NCBI GenBank assembly: GCA_040904565.1
Contig: JBBDTI010000014.1
Location: 45,180-55,602 of the forward strand
Reading direction: 5' to 3'
Source: Rhodothermales bacterium
GTDB taxonomy: Bacteria; Bacteroidota; Rhodothermia; Rhodothermales; VXPQ01
DNA length: 10,423 nucleotides
The translations under genes and the position numbers were made by a program. Positions 1,584 through 10,423 of this stretch are shown piece after piece; the first letter of the stretch is position 1, and each line of letters opens with the position of its first letter. Under the pieces are notes generated by a model that did no database searches, was not told the DNA's origin, and worked only from the letters and a program-made list of their open reading frames with translations.

Positions 1584-2297
1584 CTACAGCGAAAACACCC
1601 ATTCCGGCAGCATCCCTATCGCGACGGCCTCCAGGATCTTGTCGGCGCCGGTCAGCACCAGAAGCCCCAGAATCAAGAGCGTCCAGCCCAGCAGCTTCTT
1701 GCCGAGGCCGGATTTCGACATGAGCTCCGGCCGCCATTTCGCGAGTGCCTGTTTGGAGGCGACACCGGCCACGAGCAGGGTTCCCGCCGTCCCGATCCCG
1801 AAGGCCAGCATCACGATAAAGGCGATCCCCATGCTCTGTCCGAGCGACGCGAGGCCGATGGCGGCCCCGAGCGTCGGTCCCACGCAGGGAAGCCATACCA
1901 CCCCGAGCAGGGCCCCCACGCCGAACTGCGCGGCCGCCGATGTCTCCTGCGTCGAGCTGCCGATACGGAATCGGCCCGACAGCAGGGACAGGCGCACGGT
2001 GAGCCAGTTGCCCAGCGGCCTGACGAGCAGCGTCAGGGCGATCACTATCAGAAGCCCGGCGCCGAGATAGCGCACCAGCTCCGGATCCAGCCCCGTGTTC
2101 ACGAGCACGAACGTGAGCACCGTCCCGGCCACGGCGAACGAAACGCTGAGGCCCAGACCGAGCATCACCGGTCCCCACTTTCCACTGGACGCAGCCGAGG
2201 ACATCACGACGGGTACAAGCGGCCATACGCAGGGCGACAAAACGCCCAGGACGCCGGCCACGAAGGCCAGCGGAATCGATGCGAGCTCCAGACTCAT
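1584..2297 (-). CDS. ccdA: CcdA/DsbD-family transmembrane thiol-disulfide electron transporter
   Basis: 237-aa highly hydrophobic ORF with the two conserved Pro-Cys motifs (LSPCVWPLVP and WLPCVGPTLG). Start overlaps the upstream thioredoxin stop (ATGA, 2294-2297). Confidence 0.9.
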   Translation of the reverse strand: MSLELASIPLAFVAGVLGVLSPCVWPLVPVVMSSAASSGKWGPVMLGLGLSVSFAVAGTVLTFVLVNTGLDPELVRYLGAGLLIVIALTLLVRPLGNWLTVRLSLLSGRFRIGSSTQETSAAAQFGVGALLGVVWLPCVGPTLGAAIGLASLGQSMGIAFIVMLAFGIGTAGTLLVAGVASKQALAKWRPELMSKSGLGKKLLGWTLLILGLLVLTGADKILEAVAIGMLPEWVFSL

Positions 2298-2701
2298 GTC
2301 TGATCGGCCGCTTCATTCAGCGCTGCGAAGATCACGTCGCGGCTCGTTTCAGCCACGTTGAACCAGACCTGTTCCTCGCCTCGATAGAGGATGAGGGTAG
2401 ACTGACGCGGTGCGCGGAAGGCCCTGACCCACTCCTTCTGCTCGTCGAAATTGACCTGCAAGATGTGAAGCGGTACGTCGGGATGCTCTTCCAGATAGGC
2501 GTCGAGCACCTTCTGCTGCTGCGCGCACGTCGGGCACCAGTCGGCGAACACGTCGATCAATATCAGCGCACCCTCCGATTGAAGCTCCTCGAAGCGCTCT
2601 TCGGTAAAAGCCTCTTTTTCCTGCGACCAGGCTTGCTGCGCGGGAAACAGCAGCAGTCCGACGACCAGAAATGACACGGTGGTTGCGAGTACTCTTTTCA
2701 T
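2294..2701 (-). CDS. Exported thioredoxin-family protein
   Basis: 135 aa with a signal peptide (MKRVLATTVSFLVVGLLLFPAQQAWS) and a DVFADWCPTC active site. Coupled to ccdA. Confidence 0.88.
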   Translation of the reverse strand: MKRVLATTVSFLVVGLLLFPAQQAWSQEKEAFTEERFEELQSEGALILIDVFADWCPTCAQQQKVLDAYLEEHPDVPLHILQVNFDEQKEWVRAFRAPRQSTLILYRGEEQVWFNVAETSRDVIFAALNEAADQT

Positions 2702-2927
2702 GGTGGATCGGACCCGTATGGTGATCTACAAGAGCAAGATAGCGGAATTCGGACGCTCAACGGCGCACCGTGTATGTGTTGCAGCGATGACCTTCGTTAC
2801 ACGGTATGATCAGGTAGGCGGTGAACCGACGCGGTTGCGCGGCAGTGCGGAACGGCGCACCTTGGAAGACGGACTGGCCCCGTGCCTCCCCATCAACGTA
2901 CTGTCCTTACACCTCGAAACGTACCTA

Positions 2928-3485
2928 ATGGCCTGGATCGACGTCATCGACGAAAGCGGCGCTTCCGGCGAGCTCGAGGAAGCCTATCGGTCCATCACCG
3001 GCGCGAGGGGCAAGCTCTCCAACATCATGCGGGTCCACAGCCTGCATCCCGGAGCGATGCTCGCGCACATGGAGCTCTACCGGCAGCTGCTCTTCAGCCG
3101 ATCCGGACTCTCAAGAGCCGAGCGGGAGTTGATCGGCGTCGTGGTTTCCGCCCGCAACGCCTGTTCGTACTGCGTCCGGCATCACGCCGAAGCTCTCAGG
3201 GCGTACTGGAAGGACGCCGACCGCGTCCAGATGGCGATCGATAATTACGACGCGGCCGGACTCACCGACCGGCAGCGGGCGATGCTCGACTACGCGGTAC
3301 GGCTGACCGACGATCCCTCCGCGGTCTCGGAAGGGCACGTGGAGCAGCTCCGAGAGACGGGCCTTTCGGATCGGGACATTCTCGACGTCAATCTGATCGC
3401 GAGCTACTTCAATTTCGTAAACCGGATCGCGGAAGGCCTGGGGGTCACCTTTACGGATGATGAGGCCACGGGATTTCGCTACTGA
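2928..3485 (+). CDS. AhpD/carboxymuconolactone-decarboxylase-family peroxidase-related enzyme
   Basis: Start reassigned to ATG 2928 (MAWIDVIDE, 185 aa). Motifs ERELIGVVVSARNACSYCVRHH (CxYC) and YFNFVNRIA. Confidence 0.88.
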   Translation: MAWIDVIDESGASGELEEAYRSITGARGKLSNIMRVHSLHPGAMLAHMELYRQLLFSRSGLSRAERELIGVVVSARNACSYCVRHHAEALRAYWKDADRVQMAIDNYDAAGLTDRQRAMLDYAVRLTDDPSAVSEGHVEQLRETGLSDRDILDVNLIASYFNFVNRIAEGLGVTFTDDEATGFRY

Positions 3486-3936
3486 TGACGGTGCTGCTTG
3501 TGCTGCCTTGCGACCGTTTGTTGATCTCGCCGGCGGCCGTCCGGTCCTCGATCGCCTCGAGAATCGGGCATTCGCTCGTCGGCCCCTCGCCGCTGCACGC
3601 GTCGGCCAGACTCGTCAGGGCCGCCTCGATGCGCCGGAGATCGTCGATTTTCTCGCGCACGTCCACCAGTTTAGCGGTCGCCCTCGATCGCACGTCGCCG
3701 CAGTCCCCGTCCGGGTCGACCCGCAGCTCGAGGAGTTCTTCGATCTCACCCAGTGAGAAGCCGAGCTCCTGGGCCCGCTTGATGAAGCGGATGCGCTCGA
3801 CGTACTTCTCGTCGTAGATCCGGTAGTCACCGTCCGTACGCGGCGGCTCGGGGATCATCCCCCGCCGTTCATAATAGCGCACCGTTTCCCTGCTTACCCC
3901 CGACCTTTCGGCAACTTCTCCTCTGGTCATCGTCAT
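3451..3936 (-). CDS. merR: MerR-family divalent-metal-responsive regulator (Hg-MerR-like three-Cys pattern)
   Basis: N-terminal wHTH TRGEVAERSGVSRETVRYYERRGMI and RFIKRAQELGFSLGEIEELL. The Cys triad DCGD...ACSG...ECPIL is spaced +35 and +9, as for C82/C117/C126 of Tn501 MerR. PbrR-type regulators share similar spacing, so the metal is not certain. Start is 3936 or 3930. Confidence 0.85.
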   Translation of the reverse strand: MTMTRGEVAERSGVSRETVRYYERRGMIPEPPRTDGDYRIYDEKYVERIRFIKRAQELGFSLGEIEELLELRVDPDGDCGDVRSRATAKLVDVREKIDDLRRIEAALTSLADACSGEGPTSECPILEAIEDRTAAGEINKRSQGSTSSTVISSEIPWPHHP

Positions 3937-4035
3937 GGCGTTGCTACCTGTCGATTGCGATGCCTCATGCACTATCGATTCTGGGTGGAAAGGTTCGCTC
4001 CCGCGGCGCGTATGCGGGCGTACCGCGATCGTGGC

Positions 4036-4989
4036 TCAATTCACCGGGGTAAATTTTTGGATGCGGTCGTTCCCGAAATCCGCCACGTACAGGTTGCCGG
4101 CTTCGTCGAACGCGATATCTGCGGGCCGCTCGAACCGGCCTTCGCGGGAACCGTGCGAACCGAACGCCCCGATGAATTCACCATCTTGCGAAAAGACCTG
4201 TATGCGGTGATTGAAAAAATCCGCCACGTAGATCCGATCGTCGGGCCCGACCTCGACGGCCGTGGCCACGTTAAATCGGCCGTCGGAGGTGCCTGCTTCC
4301 GTCGTCGTTTCGGGCCGGATCCAAACCACCGTGCCGTCACCTTCCAACATCTGGATGCGATTGTTGTACGCGTCCGCCACCACAACGCGTCCGCCCGGCG
4401 CCAGGGCAACGTCGGTCGGATAGGTAAACTGTCCCGGTGCAGGGCCCTCCTCTCCGCCCCGCCCGAACGATCGGAAGGTCGTGCCCTCGGGACTCACGAC
4501 CTGGACGCGATGTTTGAAGAACTCCGCCACGTACACGTCACCATTTTCCGCGACGGCAACGCCGGCCGGCGCGTCGAAGGCATCATCGCCCCGACCCGCC
4601 CCTCCGATCGACCGGCCGGCGTCGCCATCCAGCGAGATAACATGTATCCGATCGTCGAGGTACGCCGGCACGTAGAGCCGCCCGTCATGCGCGTCCAGGT
4701 GCATCGGTCGTCTCAGACTGTCCCCTCCCACTGCGTTGAGAAAGCGCCCCTGCAAATCGAAAACCTGAATCCGATTGTTGCCCGTCTCGCTGACGAAGAG
4801 ACGTCCACCCGTTATAGCCAACCCGATCGGTTCGTCGAACTGCCCCGGCTCGGTCCCGGCTTCACCCCACGCGAGCTCGAACCGGTAGCCGGGATCGTTC
4901 GCACCATCCGACGGAGGCGATCCGCAGCCGACAAGCAGAAACGTAAACGCGAGTACCCGGAATAGACGAAGACTCGGCATGTGGATCAT
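4036..4989 (-). CDS. NHL-repeat six-bladed beta-propeller lipoprotein
   Basis: 317 aa with lipobox LLVGC. Six repeats of the F-x-x-P-x-G/D-V-A...VYVADF-x-N-x-RIQ-x-F type. Start overlaps the upstream stop (ATGA, 4986-4989). Confidence 0.9.
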   Translation of the reverse strand: MIHMPSLRLFRVLAFTFLLVGCGSPPSDGANDPGYRFELAWGEAGTEPGQFDEPIGLAITGGRLFVSETGNNRIQVFDLQGRFLNAVGGDSLRRPMHLDAHDGRLYVPAYLDDRIHVISLDGDAGRSIGGAGRGDDAFDAPAGVAVAENGDVYVAEFFKHRVQVVSPEGTTFRSFGRGGEEGPAPGQFTYPTDVALAPGGRVVVADAYNNRIQMLEGDGTVVWIRPETTTEAGTSDGRFNVATAVEVGPDDRIYVADFFNHRIQVFSQDGEFIGAFGSHGSREGRFERPADIAFDEAGNLYVADFGNDRIQKFTPVN

Positions 4990-5891
4990 ATATTCACCCT
5001 GACACTTACGATTCCGATGTACCTCGGCCCCATCCCATTCCCGTTCAGCTCACGAGCGACCGGCACCTGAAGCGCCCCTTCGAGCACGATTCTCCTCGTA
5101 ACGTATTGCAGTCCGGGCGCCCCGTACCACGTAATACCGCCGGTGTCGTCCATCTTGCTTCCATCGCTCACGTTTCTGCCGATCCCGATGAGGCTGGATT
5201 CGAGATTCGCGTAGAAGAAACCGGGAACGCCACGCGAGAGCGTACGGGGCCACACTCTCACTTTGAATGCGGCGTCCAGTCTAGACTCGTCGCCGAAATC
5301 GACCGGCCCGGCTGAACCGTTTCGCTGGAAACTCGAGGAAACGTCAAGCTGCCAGGCCAGCGTCTGCCACGTGAAGACGAGACCCAGGAACGGGTCCCAC
5401 GTGCCGGATCCGAGCTGAAGTGGAGCGGGCAGACGGCCGCGCACGTCGCGCACGTCATCCCGTCCGGTCGGCAGCTCGACGCCGGCCAGCGGAGCCAGGC
5501 GCATCGTGCGCCCCCTTGCGTTACGACGAAACGCCGTATATCGTGCGAAAAGACGGACATCTCCAATCCCTCTCGTGCTTCGAACGACGCGGCCGTCATC
5601 CGAATCGACGGCCAGGCTCTTGTCTAGGGTGGGAAGAACGCCGAAGACGGCCAGATACGGGCGCACTCCGTATACGCCGACGACGGGCGCGGCGAGCGTA
5701 GTCATGGCCCGGTTCATCTCTGTCGGGTCGTCCGTCGCCCGCATAATTTGAACCTGCATCCTGACGATGCCCTGGGCCCGGGCCACGGGCAGCGCCGTGT
5801 TGGTAGTGATCTGCGCGCGACTCGGCCGCGCGAAAAGTCCCAGCAGGCCGATGAGTACGGCGCAAGAAGTAATGGAGAGATCCGATTTCAT
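4986..5891 (-). CDS. Putative outer-membrane beta-barrel transporter (COG4313/Phenol_MetA_deg-like)
   Basis: Start reassigned to ATG 5891 (301 aa), giving a signal peptide ending PSRA-Q. Motifs GIGDVRLFARY, GVELPTG, LQLGSGTWD, PGLQY and QVPV, with alternating amphipathic strands and a terminal strand GIVSVRVNI. Confidence 0.7.
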   Translation of the reverse strand: MKSDLSITSCAVLIGLLGLFARPSRAQITTNTALPVARAQGIVRMQVQIMRATDDPTEMNRAMTTLAAPVVGVYGVRPYLAVFGVLPTLDKSLAVDSDDGRVVRSTRGIGDVRLFARYTAFRRNARGRTMRLAPLAGVELPTGRDDVRDVRGRLPAPLQLGSGTWDPFLGLVFTWQTLAWQLDVSSSFQRNGSAGPVDFGDESRLDAAFKVRVWPRTLSRGVPGFFYANLESSLIGIGRNVSDGSKMDDTGGITWYGAPGLQYVTRRIVLEGALQVPVARELNGNGMGPRYIGIVSVRVNI

Positions 5892-5949
5892 CTGGGGGAT
5901 TGTGGGGCTAAGAAGCGAGCACGTCACCAGATCGCTTGCGTGGTCCGAT

Positions 5950-6312
5950 CTAGTCCGCCGGAGTGCGCCATGTGATCGAACGGACGGTAAATCCCGCATC
6001 CGCCACCGCATCGCGTATCTGCTCTTCGGTGGGCAACGTCTCGTCCGCCAGCATCATTTCTATCGTGCCCTCTTCGATATGCACCTCAATGGCATCCACA
6101 CCCTCGAGCGCCATCAATTTCTTTTCGATGCCATACGCACAGAACGGACAGGCAAGCCCATCCACTTCCAGCGTCACATCCGGCTCGCTAGTGGCATTCC
6201 GTGCATTCTGTGCGTTCGCAGCCAACACCGGCAGCGAACCGATGGCAAGCATTCCGACAACGAGTGCGACGATCGGTAGACGGCACACGGTTCTTAGTCT
6301 GGCCTCGTTCAT
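5950..6312 (-). CDS. Exported heavy-metal-associated (HMA) domain protein, MerP/CopZ-like
   Basis: From ATG 6312 (120 aa): a signal peptide, then VTLEVDGLACPFCAYGIEKKL...IRDAVADAGF. Confidence 0.85.
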   Translation of the reverse strand: MNEARLRTVCRLPIVALVVGMLAIGSLPVLAANAQNARNATSEPDVTLEVDGLACPFCAYGIEKKLMALEGVDAIEVHIEEGTIEMMLADETLPTEEQIRDAVADAGFTVRSITWRTPAD

Positions 6313-6392
6313 CCTGCAGTCAGGCGTAAGCTTGATAGGTAGACAATGGGGGGCGAGAATCCGCTCAGCGGCAGGCGGTTGTTCCACGGCGA

Positions 6393-6659
6393 TCAGAGAG
6401 GTTGACCGATCCCCGCATCCAGGAGGGCTTCCTCGCTCACGCCTCGACCGTCACAGCACCCGGCCAGCTCTCCGTCGATGACGACGGCGGGCACGCTGCG
6501 AATCCCCAGCGCCGCGGCTCGGCGAGCGACCGCCTCGTCGGAAAGATTCAGTACGTCGATGTCGCACGAGTCGCAGGCTATGCGACGGACCATATCGACC
6601 GTCTGATCGCAAATCGGGCATCCGGCCGTGAAGATTTCTACGGTGCGCGTCTGACTCAT
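6393..6659 (-). CDS. Small Cys-rich thioredoxin/glutaredoxin-fold protein
   Basis: 88 aa with VEIFTAGCPIC and the cis-Pro motif SVPAVVIDG, plus extra CDSC and GCC. GGAG lies upstream of the start. Confidence 0.85.
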   Translation of the reverse strand: MSQTRTVEIFTAGCPICDQTVDMVRRIACDSCDIDVLNLSDEAVARRAAALGIRSVPAVVIDGELAGCCDGRGVSEEALLDAGIGQPL

Positions 6660-6705
6660 CACTCAGGCTCCATTCAATAAAATTCCTCCGTCGATTCGCG
6701 CCTTG

Positions 6706-6733
6706 TACGGCCTGTAGTACACTACAACGTTTC
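6706..6733 (-). promoter_or_regulatory. Candidate MerR operator/promoter
   Basis: Perfect dyad TGTAGT-AC-ACTACA at 6713-6726, within CTGTAG-TACA-CTACAA. It resembles the mer operator CCGTAC-N4-GTACGG and lies about 55 nt upstream of the first gene of the merR-containing cluster. Confidence 0.65.
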
Positions 6734-6837
6734 TTGCTTCATCGACAATTCACATAGAGGTGGCCCAAGGGACGGCGTGCGTGGGCGCCTATATCGCTTG
6801 GACGGATTCTCGCATCCTATAGAAATTAGAGACCGCT

Positions 6838-7428
6838 TCAGCGCTTGCTCACTACGACGACGTCGTCCGCGACCCGGGTCGTCGCATCGTCGCGAAGGAC
6901 GAGTCCGTGGCGCCGAAGCATCCACAATTCCGGTATGATCTCGGAGATGACTTCCCCGTCGTTGAAGATGCGCACGACCGAGCTTTCCGAGACGACGACG
7001 GCGACGGCGGAGGTGTATTTTGAAATGGATGCCCCCGCCATGTGGCGGCTTCCCAATCCCAGCGGCAGTTCGATCCCTCCGGAAGAGGCGTCAAAGTATC
7101 GGGCCGCCGACACGACGATGCCATCTCCGGAGACCACGAAGCCGCCGTCCAGCTGTGCGAGCTCCTTGATCGTTTCACGGCAGTTGGGGTCGGACAAGCT
7201 CCGGGCGGTCTCCGGGTGCCCGAGCAGCGGGTCCAGGATGAGGGCGCGCGAGCGGGTCATGACGCTTTCCACGTCTCCAATCACGAAAAGCGTCCCGATC
7301 TTTCGCCCCTCGCGCCCCTCGCGCGCGATTTCCACGGCCAGTACGAGCACTTCTTCCAGCGTCCCCGGATCGACGTAGCATTGCTGGCAGCAGACTTCTT
7401 CGAGTATTGCTTGCAAACGCTCGTGCAT
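6838..7428 (-). CDS. Stand-alone diadenylate cyclase (DAC/DisA_N domain), DacZ-like
   Basis: 196 aa with GREGRKIGTLFVIGD, KELAQLDGGFVV (DGA-motif variant), GLGSRHMAG (RHR-motif variant as in DacZ-type enzymes) and VVVSES. Confidence 0.85.
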   Translation of the reverse strand: MHERLQAILEEVCCQQCYVDPGTLEEVLVLAVEIAREGREGRKIGTLFVIGDVESVMTRSRALILDPLLGHPETARSLSDPNCRETIKELAQLDGGFVVSGDGIVVSAARYFDASSGGIELPLGLGSRHMAGASISKYTSAVAVVVSESSVVRIFNDGEVISEIIPELWMLRRHGLVLRDDATTRVADDVVVVSKR

Positions 7429-7701: not shown

Positions 7702-8109
7702 ATGCCCAATCGGGAGCTAACGGATCGAACCTGCATCCGCGTCGACGCTGATCCCGACAAGCTCGAGCATCTGCGCAAGAGCGTCATGGCGAATGACCGC
7801 CTCGTGGGGCTGGCCGCCTATATGTCGGCGGTCTCCAACGAAACGCGGCTGCGCATGCTTTACGTGCTCTGGGAAGCCGGCGAGCTGTGCGTCTGCGACC
7901 TCGCCGACATCTTCGGCATCAGCCAGCCGGCCGTCTCCCGGCATCTGAAAATTCTGCGGGAGAAAGCGCTGGTGGAGACGCGTCGTGACGCGCAGACTAT
8001 TTACTACCGCGTTTGCCGGGATAATCCGTTCGCGCAAATGCTCGTAGCCCTTTTCGAAGCGCAGGAGACGGATCGTATCACGCTCAATCTGAAGGATATC
8101 ACACAATGA
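7702..8109 (+). CDS. ArsR/SmtB-family metalloregulator heading the mer operon
   Basis: 135 aa with NETRLRML, ELCVCDLA (alpha3 metal-site motif), SQPAVSRHLKILR and RRDAQTIYY. ATGA overlap with the next gene (8106-8109). Confidence 0.92.
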   Translation: MPNRELTDRTCIRVDADPDKLEHLRKSVMANDRLVGLAAYMSAVSNETRLRMLYVLWEAGELCVCDLADIFGISQPAVSRHLKILREKALVETRRDAQTIYYRVCRDNPFAQMLVALFEAQETDRITLNLKDITQ

Positions 8110-8717
8110 ACACACCGGATGATCGCCCGACGAAAGTAGGCTTGCTGGCCGCCGTCGGCGCGGCCGTCGCCGCGTCGGTCTGCTGCATCGTACCGCTCGG
8201 ACTCGTATCGCTCGGCATCGGCGGCGCCTGGATCGGCACGCTTACGGCGCTCGAGCCGTTTCGACCGCTTTTCATCGCCACCGCCGTGGCAGCCCTAGGC
8301 TTCGCGGGGTATCACGAGTATCGCACCACGATGGCCCCTGATTGCGAGTGTGAGATCGGGATGCAGGATCGACTGCGCCGGTCGCTGCTCGTCGTTGGCA
8401 CCCTCGTCGTAGGCACGCTCATCGCCTCGCCGTGGCTCATCCAGGGTACGGCCTCGGCCGGGGAGCCGACGGTGGAGACGGTAGACGCAGCCGTCATGCA
8501 GGAAGTCGTTCTCGTTGTAGAAGGCATGACCTGTGCTAGCTGCAACATCACCGTCCGCAAGGCGCTCACGAATCTTGACGGCGTGCGCGAGGCCGAGGTC
8601 ACGTTCGAGCCCCCGCGGGCCGTCGTGCGCTTCGACGCCTCCAGGGTGAGCGTCGAGGAGCTGACGCGTGCCACGACCAACGTTGGTTATCCCTCAAGAC
8701 TGAAAACGTCCTCATGA
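8106..8717 (+). CDS. merTP: MerT-MerP fusion mercuric transporter
   Basis: 203 aa. TM1 AASVCCIVPL and GIGGAWIGTLTALEPFRPLF are MerT-like, followed by loop DCECE, a third TM helix and the HMA domain LVVEGMTCASC...TNVGYPS. Confidence 0.92.
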   Translation: MNTPDDRPTKVGLLAAVGAAVAASVCCIVPLGLVSLGIGGAWIGTLTALEPFRPLFIATAVAALGFAGYHEYRTTMAPDCECEIGMQDRLRRSLLVVGTLVVGTLIASPWLIQGTASAGEPTVETVDAAVMQEVVLVVEGMTCASCNITVRKALTNLDGVREAEVTFEPPRAVVRFDASRVSVEELTRATTNVGYPSRLKTSS

Positions 8718-10423
8718 AGTGGCCGAACTACCTTAAGAACAGGCTCGTCGTATTCGGCGGCCTGGGCACCGCGATCGCAGCGATCTGCTGCTTCACGCCG
8801 GTGCTGGTATGGGGCGCGGTAGCGCTTGGACTGGCGGGCATCGTGGCATATCTGGACTTCGTTCTGCTCCCTCTCCTCGCCGTCGCCCTCGTCGTCACGT
8901 ACGCGGGCATACGCCAGGTAAAGAAAGGTCACGGTGCCGGACGGAGCGAGGCGCCGTCGGTCCGCTCCACGCCCGCCACGCCATCCGGTAGTCCCGGCGA
9001 CGATCGGCAGGGCGAAGATCCTCCGTCAGAGACCTACGACCTCGTCGTGATCGGCGGTGGTTCGGCCGCGTTCGCGGCCGCTGTAAAGACGAGCGAGCTC
9101 GGCGGACGCGCCGTGATCGTCAACTCCGGTTTACCCATCGGAGGCACGTGCGTCAACGTCGGCTGCGTACCATCGAAAACGTTCGTCCGTGCGGGGGAGA
9201 GCGCCTACCGGGCCCGGCAGACGCCCTTCGACGGCATTCGGACGGAGGGCGGCGTGTCGGACTTCGGCGCCGTCAGCCGCCAGACGCAGGCGCTGGTACG
9301 ATCGCTGCGGCAGGAGAAATACGTGGACGTCGTCAGCGGCGACCCGAACGTAACGATCATAGAAGAACGGGCGCGCATCGAAGCGCCGCACGTCGTCGAG
9401 GTCAGCGGCCAACAGTTTCAGGCGCGCAATATATTGATCGCGACGGGCGCACGGACGTATGTTCCTGACATACCGGGACTCACCGACGCAGGCTATCTCA
9501 CGAACGAAGAGCTCTATTCGCTGGAGCGTCAGCCCGATCACCTGATCGTGCTGGGCGGGCGCTACGTCGCGCTCGAGAACGCGCAGGCGTTCGCTCGGCT
9601 CGGCAGCCGGGTCACCATCCTGCAGCGCTCCGACCGCATCCTGCCTTCTGAATCGGCAGATCTCACGGATGCGTTAACGATGTACCTCCGCGACGAGGGC
9701 ATCGAGGTTCGAACGGGCGTCACGACGCGGGCCGTCCGACGAGACGAAGGCGGTATCGTCGTCGAAATCGAAATGAACGGCGAAGAGCGGCTCGTCCGCG
9801 GCAGCCACCTCCTCCTGGCAACCGGACGGCAGGGCAACACGGACGATCTCGGGCTGGAAGCGCTCGGCATCGAGATAGGTCCACGCGGCTTTCTGCCCGT
9901 CGACGATGCACTAGGCACCGGCGCGGCGCACGTCTTCGGGGCTGGTGACGTAATCGGGGAGCCTATGTTCGTCTACACGGCAGCGTATGAGGGTGCGCTC
10001 GCCGCCCGGAACGCGATGGAAGACACGCAGGAAGCGCGAGATTACGCCGCGCTGCCATGGGTCGTCTTTACCGATCCCCAGCTGGCGGGCGTCGGACTCG
10101 ACGAGACGCAGGCCACGGAAGCGGGCATCGAGATCGACGTCGCCAAGATCTCGCTGGAGAACGTCCCCCGCAGTATCGCCGCGCGCGACACGCGGGGCTT
10201 CATCAAGCTGATACGCGACCGGGCCACCGACCGGCTCGTGGGTGCACGCATTCTCGCGCCGGAGGGCTCCGAGCTCCTCATGGAAGTCACGCTCGCCATC
10301 AAGCACGGCATCACGGTACGGGAGCTCACGGAATCGTTCCACCCCTACCTGACGCTCTCAGAAGGCATCAAGCTGGCCGCCATTTCCTTCAATAAAGACG
10401 TCAGGAAGCTGAGCTGCTGCGCG
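8714..10423 (+). CDS. merA: MerF-MerA fusion: mercuric reductase with N-terminal MerF membrane transporter (stop codon outside window)
   Basis: Hand translation from ATG 8714 is open for 570 codons to the window end. Residues 1-71 are MerF-like (GTAIAAICCFTPVLV...AYLDFVLLPLL), 72-107 are a linker. Then come YDLVVIGGGSAAFAAA, GGTCVNVGCVPSK (Cys codons 9149, 9164), RQEKY, GGRYVALE, ATGRQGN, AGDV, MFVYTAA, VVFTDPQ, FHPYLTLSEGIKLAA and the MerA-diagnostic terminus KLSCCA. Confidence 0.95.
   Translation, partial: MKWPNYLKNRLVVFGGLGTAIAAICCFTPVLVWGAVALGLAGIVAYLDFVLLPLLAVALVVTYAGIRQVKKGHGAGRSEAPSVRSTPATPSGSPGDDRQGEDPPSETYDLVVIGGGSAAFAAAVKTSELGGRAVIVNSGLPIGGTCVNVGCVPSKTFVRAGESAYRARQTPFDGIRTEGGVSDFGAVSRQTQALVRSLRQEKYVDVVSGDPNVTIIEERARIEAPHVVEVSGQQFQARNILIATGARTYVPDIPGLTDAGYLTNEELYSLERQPDHLIVLGGRYVALENAQAFARLGSRVTILQRSDRILPSESADLTDALTMYLRDEGIEVRTGVTTRAVRRDEGGIVVEIEMNGEERLVRGSHLLLATGRQGNTDDLGLEALGIEIGPRGFLPVDDALGTGAAHVFGAGDVIGEPMFVYTAAYEGALAARNAMEDTQEARDYAALPWVVFTDPQLAGVGLDETQATEAGIEIDVAKISLENVPRSIAARDTRGFIKLIRDRATDRLVGARILAPEGSELLMEVTLAIKHGITVRELTESFHPYLTLSEGIKLAAISFNKDVRKLSCCA

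Follow-up and report, generated by a model that had tools for sequence, protein, structure and literature searches.

Are a mercury transporter and a mercuric reductase encoded as one polypeptide in a bacterium of the order Rhodothermales, and what would such a protein do? The question is raised by a DNA stretch of 10,423 nucleotides (nt) (NCBI GenBank assembly GCA_040904565.1, contig JBBDTI010000014.1, positions 45,180 to 55,602 of the forward strand; from here: the window), which forms the final 10.4 kb of its contig, C14. On the + strand of the window, a single stop-free frame at 8714-10423 encodes 570 amino acids (aa) and, open at its 3′ side, reaches the end of the contig. A first-pass annotation, made from the letters and a list of open reading frames (ORFs), described this frame as a MerF-like transporter domain joined through a linker to the core of the mercuric reductase MerA. 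We conclude that merF::merA, as we call this fused ORF of 570 codons, is very probably a real gene. The reading that we favour, and consider probable, is that of a young fusion confined to one lineage, which would yield a membrane-tethered MerA.

The arrangement of a MerF domain, a linker and a MerA core within one frame was borne out by Pfam, NCBIfam and PDB matches, and in profile searches with MerF and MerA models both halves scored above the cut-offs of PF11431, NF033565 and TIGR02053. The MerF-type domain covers aa 1-71 (8714..8926, + strand). The Pfam model PF11431 (Transport_MerF) matched aa 28-69 with 30.2 bits, above the cut-off of 24.3, and scored 34.8 when the whole genome was searched. 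The NCBIfam equivalog NF033565 (trans_MerF) reached 56.3 bits against a cut-off of 50 when aa 1-107 alone served as the query. Among solved structures, MerF 2m67/2moz aligned to aa 15-71 over chain residues 11-67 (E 1.5e-8), and the MerF entries 2lj2, 2h3o and 1waz matched the N-terminus of the fusion as well. The stand-alone MerF of a relative from the same family (genome G006) is 57% identical to the MerF half (47/82 residues).

An alignment of the fusion with its 59 closest MerF homologues (A3, 60 sequences) showed that all four invariant columns (C26, P29, D48 and P53) and all 11 nearly invariant ones are retained. The vicinal cysteine pair C25-C26 (8786..8791, + strand) lies in helix 1 within the motif CCFTP, in which C26 and P29 do not vary and C25, F27 and T28 are shared by at least 90% of the aligned sequences; the LLP motif is also present. 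The Kyte-Doolittle average over 19 residues exceeded 1.6 solely at window centres 18-60, that is, in one continuous hydrophobic block. When AlphaFold2 was supplied with the 59 MerF homologues, it modelled two helices (aa 10-38 and aa 41-72) and, beyond them, a tail without structure; the mean predicted local distance difference test (pLDDT) score was 73.9 and the predicted template modelling (pTM) score 0.38. Basic residues flank the helices on both sides (K2, K8 and R10 at the N-terminus; R67, K70, K71 and R77 after helix 2), and both ends of the MerF half are therefore predicted to be cytoplasmic. Judged by these features, the MerF half is a predicted two-helix inner-membrane Hg(II) transporter. 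For MerF, the helix-1 Cys pair has been reported to be important for transport, and both Cys pairs to lie on the cytoplasmic side (PMC5500634, in part).

Canonical MerF of 81 aa possesses a second, C-terminal Cys pair, which the fusion and most of its closest homologues lack. The first-pass annotation had noted this absence correctly, as the tail that follows helix 2 (aa 67-107) is devoid of Cys. It should not be counted as a consequence of the fusion: in the tails of the 59 closest homologues a CC pair occurs in only 1/59 and a C-x(0-4)-C pattern in 3/59, hence the missing pair is normal for this subfamily.

The MerA catalytic core comprises aa 108-570 (9035..10423, + strand). It matched the MerA equivalog TIGR02053 with 537.2 bits against a cut-off of 454.45 (538 in the genome search) and covered profile positions 1-464 of 465, while Pfam assigned Pyr_redox_2 to aa 108-427 and Pyr_redox_dim to aa 448-555. 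The solved MerA structures 5x1y (E 9.6e-110) and 1zk7 (E 2.2e-103) were matched, and the nearest MerA proteins, P0002 and P0003, are 78% and 73% identical, respectively. In a MerA-only alignment of 36 sequences (A2), which together with A3 replaced a mixed alignment (A1) that was discarded because the short MerF sequences had been misaligned with scattered identities of 17-31%, the redox-active disulfide motif C146-V-N-V-G-C151 (9149..9166, + strand) was invariant and aligned with the solved MerA. Invariant too was the C-terminal vicinal pair C568-C569 (10415..10420, + strand), which aligned with the ...LSCCA termini of 5x1y and 1zk7. The same held for Y203 (in KY) and Y545 (in PYLT), which aligned with the KY and PYLT of 1zk7; we take 1zk7 to be the Tn501 core and the two active-site tyrosines of MerA to be presumably Tn501 Y194 and Y535. 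In MerA, the C-terminal vicinal Cys tail acquires Hg(II), and the enzyme works as a homodimer. AlphaFold2 with the MerA alignment gave a well-folded core.

The N-terminal domain NmerA (an HMA domain with GMTCxxC) is optional within the MerA family. The first-pass annotation had seen none here, and the Pfam search of the fused protein likewise found no HMA/NmerA domain. Within the genome, which is 94.9% complete, the fused gene is the sole one above the MerA cut-off, and three non-MerA paralogues lack the C-terminal CC. Any mercury reduction by this organism would rest on the fused protein. A further flavoprotein disulfide-reductase homologue outside the window (G000:C14:7159-8478) scored 256.7 bits with the MerA model and carries two in-frame TGA codons, and may represent either a pseudogene or a selenoprotein.

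The linker between the two halves spans aa 72-107 (36 residues; 8927..9034, + strand). Its composition and a codon scan agreed with the earlier description of a Pro/Ser/Gly-rich segment without ATG, GTG or TTG: Pro, Ser and Gly account for 6 residues each of the 36, and there is neither a Cys nor a canonical start codon. In the AlphaFold2 model based on the MerA alignment, aa 70-102 had a pLDDT below 50 and no secondary structure, and in the model based on the MerF alignment the part beyond aa 75 was without structure at a pLDDT of 57-67. The codon-position GC content of the linker is flat (0.75/0.75/0.69, compared with a third-position value of 0.80 in both flanks), which is uninformative because the segment is rich in Pro, Gly, Ser and Ala.

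Could MerA nevertheless be produced, in addition or mainly, as an ordinary soluble protein from a start of its own? The candidates for such an internal start are an in-frame GTG at 9047 and, as a non-canonical codon, ATC at 9050, both just ahead of the GGGSAA loop. Initiation at 9047 would delete most of the first Rossmann beta-strand, which is E106-114 in the model, whereas the relatives begin MerA 9 to 22 residues upstream of this strand. The start-codon scan of the ORF frame confirmed that MerA has no obvious independent start, as had been proposed: between 8843 (aa 44, in helix 2) and 9047 (aa 112, in the first Rossmann strand) the frame contains no ATG, GTG or TTG, the linker included. 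We therefore give hardly any credence to a separately initiated MerA.

The second doubt concerns the assembly itself. An assembly error or indel in this metagenome-assembled genome might have merged separate merF and merA genes, and two circumstances speak for this possibility. The genome (4.02 Mb, 1.3% contamination) is distributed over 95 contigs with the gene located at a contig end, and in G006, a member of the same family, merF overlaps with merA in another frame, a layout in which an error of one base could mimic a fusion. However, the fusion belongs to a cluster at 90% identity with three members from three assemblies, the underlying samples of which are not necessarily independent. Besides the window protein these are P0121, a partial protein of 215 aa from a different NCBI contig with an identical junction, and P0122, a protein of 571 aa from a Logan contig in which the MerF-linker-MerA junction is again identical while 8/570 residues differ, at aa 218 and within aa 526-564. 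The junction is thus supported by no fewer than two haplotypes and two routes of assembly. Moreover, no single indel would give back a pair of ordinary genes, since both other frames of the 8843-9047 stretch are interrupted by stops and the MerA frame has no start back to helix 2; reverting one indel yields neither a MerA start codon nor a natural MerF end. Because the junction is common to three assemblies, one of them with eight differences elsewhere, we consider an artefact very unlikely.

P0122 also bears on the open 3′ end. This near-identical full-length protein ends in ...SCCAT, and the MerA proteins of relatives end in ...SCCAA or ...SCCAV, from which it follows that the ORF in the window is short of only its last codon and the stop. 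For the entire fused protein a model exists in the ESM Atlas (pTM 0.79). Full-length homologues in other genomes had been suggested as a check of the fusion: the same junction recurs in P0121 and P0122, and the searches described below found none outside this 90%-identity cluster.

How widespread, then, is the architecture? In genome surveys, the Pfam MerF model was searched against whole genomes and the open frame around each match was recorded. Of 61 genomes from the same family and order, seven contained MerF, including that of the window, and the other six frames measured 88-163 codons compared with 615 for the window. An even sample of 401 genomes across the phylum again contained seven with MerF (the genome of the window and one already seen among them; frames of 84-163 codons). 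In 401 genomes from the phylum of locus L013 (Oceanospirillaceae bacterium), MerF was present in 61, with 71 matches and frames of 43-205 codons, and two further genomes had MerF frames of 99 and 151 codons. Altogether, 0/84 other matches in 868 genomes were fused; all were stand-alone, in open frames of 43-205 codons.

Protein searches gave a similar picture. When the 120 best full-length homologues from 5.8 billion cluster representatives were scanned for PF11431, only the window's own protein carried it. Of 5819 candidates between 313 and 998 aa in length that were scored against aa 1-100, none but the window's own protein reached E <= 0.1, a threshold that MerF domains with much less than about 40% identity would miss in a database of 5.8 billion sequences. 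When aa 1-107 was searched exhaustively against 1.84 billion representatives, 372 matches were obtained at E <= 0.001, and 149 of the best 150 were 57-172 aa long. Such a search covers MerF-like representatives and is blind to any fusion grouped with ordinary MerA at 50% identity; the window's own protein, too, was not among the listed matches. The lone long match among these 150, P0260 (584 aa, seven matching stretches), is a repetitive trypsin-like protein and was rejected as spurious. In the ESM Atlas, the matches of which are leads only, no fused cluster was found: the whole protein led to MerA clusters, and aa 1-107 led to stand-alone MerF of 69-80 aa with scores of 0.83-0.85.

At the DNA level, we used a motif consisting of CCFTP (with TGC as the first Cys codon), a fixed distance of 68 nt, the Leu-Pro of helix 2, a spacing of 155-185 nt and GxGxAA. 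The motif thus allows a spacing range of 30 nt and misses other linker lengths and codons; records of the window's genome were excluded and downstream genes were identified by the motif alone. Across 185,579 species genomes it detected seven loci, in all of which (7/7) merF reached a stop before the second motif. A metagenome collection yielded 11 loci, nine of which had a merF stop; the remaining two were discarded, L028 as a chance match and L020 because its reductase motif lies in another frame, the frame of merF itself being open to the contig end. In-frame fusions were accordingly found in 0/18 loci on genome and metagenome contigs. A tblastn search with aa 1-79 against 72,556 plasmids gave no match at E <= 1e-3, which is uninformative. 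Within the reach of these protein, genome and motif searches, rarity is supported. The MerF-MerA architecture is at least very rare and, given the limits of sensitivity and linker length, not proven unique.

The mer operons of relatives indicate from which arrangement the fusion may have arisen. In the window, the ATG of merF::merA (8714-8716) overlaps the TGA stop of merTP (8715-8717) in an ATGA arrangement, as had been stated earlier. The gene order arsR-merTP-merF-merA with ATGA or GTGA start-stop overlaps is likewise found in relatives (for arsR, in L005 and L006), and merF ends in a stop in every relative examined. In L006, the locus of the same-family genome G006, merF and a core-only merA share 38 nt, read in different frames, hence only a small change would be needed for a fusion. 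L005, from the same order, has merTP-merF-merA with a core-only MerA after a gap of 190 nt. In L002, L003 and L004, also from the same order, merTP-merF is followed by a gap or a small HMA gene and then by NmerA-merA. The small gene of L002 (1040-1396, - strand; relative G033) encodes a 119-aa HMA protein that ends in CC and lies between merF and NmerA-merA. In the same-class mer operons of L008-L012 (e.g. L012:1208-1414), a small Cys-rich gene is located between merTP and merF; its product, which has a terminal CC, scored 106.7 bits with NF041374, the model of the GDCCVxC domain family (cut-off, 40). In L008-L012, merA was not seen within about 3 kb, and a frame similar to the GDCCVxC gene follows merF in L007 (1664-2119).

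A quick maximum-likelihood tree was calculated for 71 MerA cores, namely the 70 best matches plus L006. The motif search classified 35 of these cores as NmerA-bearing, 35 as core-only and one as MerF-bearing; among the 70 best homologues it counted 35 NmerA and 34 core-only proteins. The fused MerA grouped with the NmerA-bearing P0002 and P0003 with a Shimodaira-Hasegawa-like approximate likelihood-ratio test (SH-aLRT) support of 99 and was sister to P0002 at 89. Parsimony on this tree suggests an ancestral NmerA-merA downstream of merF, as in L002-L004, and a deletion that brought MerF helix 2 and the NmerA linker together. Alternatively, a core-only arrangement such as that of L006 may have become fused when the merF stop was lost. 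We also considered whether an NmerA tail or linker might survive as the linker of the fusion. The BLASTP alignment with the NmerA-bearing P0003 extends back to aa 70. In a shuffle test against 15 MerA N-terminal regions with 2000 shuffles each, the counts were 30/2000 for P0003, 86/2000 for P0017 and 1661/2000 for the nearest relative, P0002, and such a remnant was not established.

What might the fused protein do? We think it likely that it is a functional membrane-tethered reductase. Since MerF has both of its ends in the cytoplasm, the reductase would be placed at the inner membrane face, with the MerA core suspended there by a disordered cytoplasmic linker of about 36 residues. As MerA is a homodimer, two MerF hairpins would anchor each dimer, beside MerTP. 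Hg(II) might enter through MerF and/or MerTP and be collected at the membrane by the mobile C568-C569 tail of MerA, either from C25/C26 of MerF or from the cytoplasmic CEC loop of MerT. It would then move on to the redox pair Cys146/Cys151 and be reduced to Hg(0) with NADPH/FAD. In such a scheme the tether would perform the job that soluble NmerA has in the closest relatives, for which a hand-off chain from MerP via MerT and NmerA to the MerA active site has been described (PMC5500634 and PMC5895735, both in part). A direct hand-off of Hg(II) from MerF to MerA is plausible on these grounds, if somewhat short of probable. More tentatively still, MerF may have replaced NmerA to form a single-chain vectorial import-and-reduce machine in which Hg(II) is never free or bound to small thiols in the cytoplasm. 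If this were true, the protein would be the first natural membrane-bound mercuric reductase. The membrane topology, the tethering, the route of the hand-off and any fitness benefit are what we infer from the sequence and the models.

A different view of the same gene is that the fusion is real but recent and neutral or mildly harmful, with MerF as a passive anchor, or with the linker proteolysed to release a soluble MerA, and without channelling. Its confinement to one cluster of three near-identical sequences would fit this view, as would the 84/84 other MerF matches in the surveyed genomes that are stand-alone. The linker is long, disordered and unconserved, the type of segment that is prone to proteases, and gains and losses of N-terminal modules are frequent, at least 10 being implied by the 71 rows of the MerA tree. 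On the other side, every conserved motif has been kept in both halves, the protein is the only MerA in the genome and the junction is common to two haplotypes; none of these observations excludes neutrality. On balance, we regard a neutral or harmful fusion as rather unlikely.

The favoured reading of a young fusion that tethers MerA to the membrane has to be set against several further points, all of which weigh against it. The fusion is known from assemblies only, and from one 90%-identity cluster of three sequences in a single lineage, which limits its weight; occurrence in a single cluster is what would be expected of a very recent and possibly neutral event. In addition, AlphaFold2 without MerF homologues draws aa 17-71 as a single long helix, and the hairpin arises only with the MerF alignment, in the model of pTM 0.38. 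Finally, after 15 comparisons the likeness of the linker to NmerA linkers is not significant (best P0003, 30/2000).

The fused gene is the last of three translationally coupled genes on the + strand that probably form an ArsR-controlled operon arsR-merTP-merF::merA. The first gene, arsR (7702..8109), encodes an ArsR/SmtB-family metalloregulator (Pfam HTH_5, 63.8 bits; NCBIfam NF033788, 92.3 bits against a cut-off of 55), and its stop overlaps the start of merTP in an ATGA at 8106-8109. The merTP gene (8106..8717) encodes a 203-aa MerT transporter fused to a MerP-like HMA domain (Pfam MerT, 83.4 bits; HMA, 47.5 bits), which scored 123 bits with the NCBIfam model MerTP_fusion, below the cut-off of 180.

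A cluster of metal- and thiol-related genes, mostly on the - strand, adjoins the mer operon at 1584-7428. Profile searches assigned to it a DsbD/CcdA-like membrane protein (1584-2297), a thioredoxin-like protein (2294-2701), an AhpD-like peroxidase-related protein on the + strand (2679-3485), a MerR-family metal regulator (3451-3972; TIGR02051, 139 bits, below the cut-off of 150.85), an HMA-domain protein (5950-6387) and a small thioredoxin/glutaredoxin-like protein with a CPIC motif (6393-6662). A 341-aa ORF on the - strand (4986-6011), without a Pfam family at E <= 0.01, is situated between the HMA gene and a gene for an NHL-repeat beta-propeller protein (4036-4989). A stand-alone DAC/DisA_N (diadenylate-cyclase) protein of 196 aa is encoded on the - strand at 6838-7428 (67.3 bits), and its gene diverges from the arsR-mer operon. 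The neighbourhood also contains a gene with a type IX secretion system (T9SS) tail, which, like the names attached to the nearest MerA homologues, points to a probable Rhodothermales-type host.

Both parts of the fused protein are ordinary members of their families; the join is new as far as the searches reach. Full-text literature searches brought up neither a fusion of MerF with MerA nor a MerA anchored in the membrane, and the consulted portions of two mer-operon surveys (PMC3466566, PMC8261052), exclusive of their operon-content supplements, mention neither of the two.

The route by which Hg(II) travels from the transporters to MerA is still argued from indirect evidence, with NmerA, small thiols or direct contact as the candidates. 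A natural tie between transporter and reductase in place of NmerA would be a ready-made test of this hand-off, and a self-contained membrane-tethered reductase could provide strains for mercury bioremediation or biosensing with a compact component. The fusion is, in addition, an example of adjacent, overlapping mer genes turning into one gene.

Compared with known systems, the MerF half resembles stand-alone MerF (2m67, 2moz, 2lj2, 2h3o, 1waz; NF033565) in its CCFTP and LLP motifs, its two predicted hydrophobic helices and its scores above the cut-offs, yet those are short proteins, whereas the MerF of the fusion runs on into an enzyme of 463 aa. The same difference separates it from operons with separate merTP-merF-merA genes (L006 from the same family; L002-L005 from the same order), in which merF is terminated by a stop. 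MerF joined to other proteins occurs in P0128 (172 aa) and P0223 (168 aa), where the partner, attached N-terminally and C-terminally, respectively, is a soluble domain of about 90-100 aa and not MerA. This partner carries a YF.GCPN motif, and its likeness to glutaredoxin/GST_N is weak and below threshold; MerF thus tolerates cytoplasmic domains at either end. Fusions between other mercury-pathway proteins are established: as in MerTP (NF033556) and in the known MerB-MerA fusion MerBA (PMC11227200, in part), consecutive steps of the pathway are united in one chain through a flexible loop, and for such fusions a faster hand-off has been proposed. However, MerTP combines a transporter with a periplasmic binding domain and MerBA a lyase with a reductase, and neither combines a transporter with a reductase. 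The closest parallel is NmerA-MerA (P0002, P0003 and the solved 5x1y), with the same catalytic core, 73-78% identical to that of P0002 and P0003, and likewise with an N-terminal Hg-handling module, attached by a flexible linker several tens of residues long. The module of NmerA-MerA is a soluble GMTCxxC domain, while that of the fusion is a predicted two-helix membrane MerF, with which the enzyme is expected to be membrane-bound.

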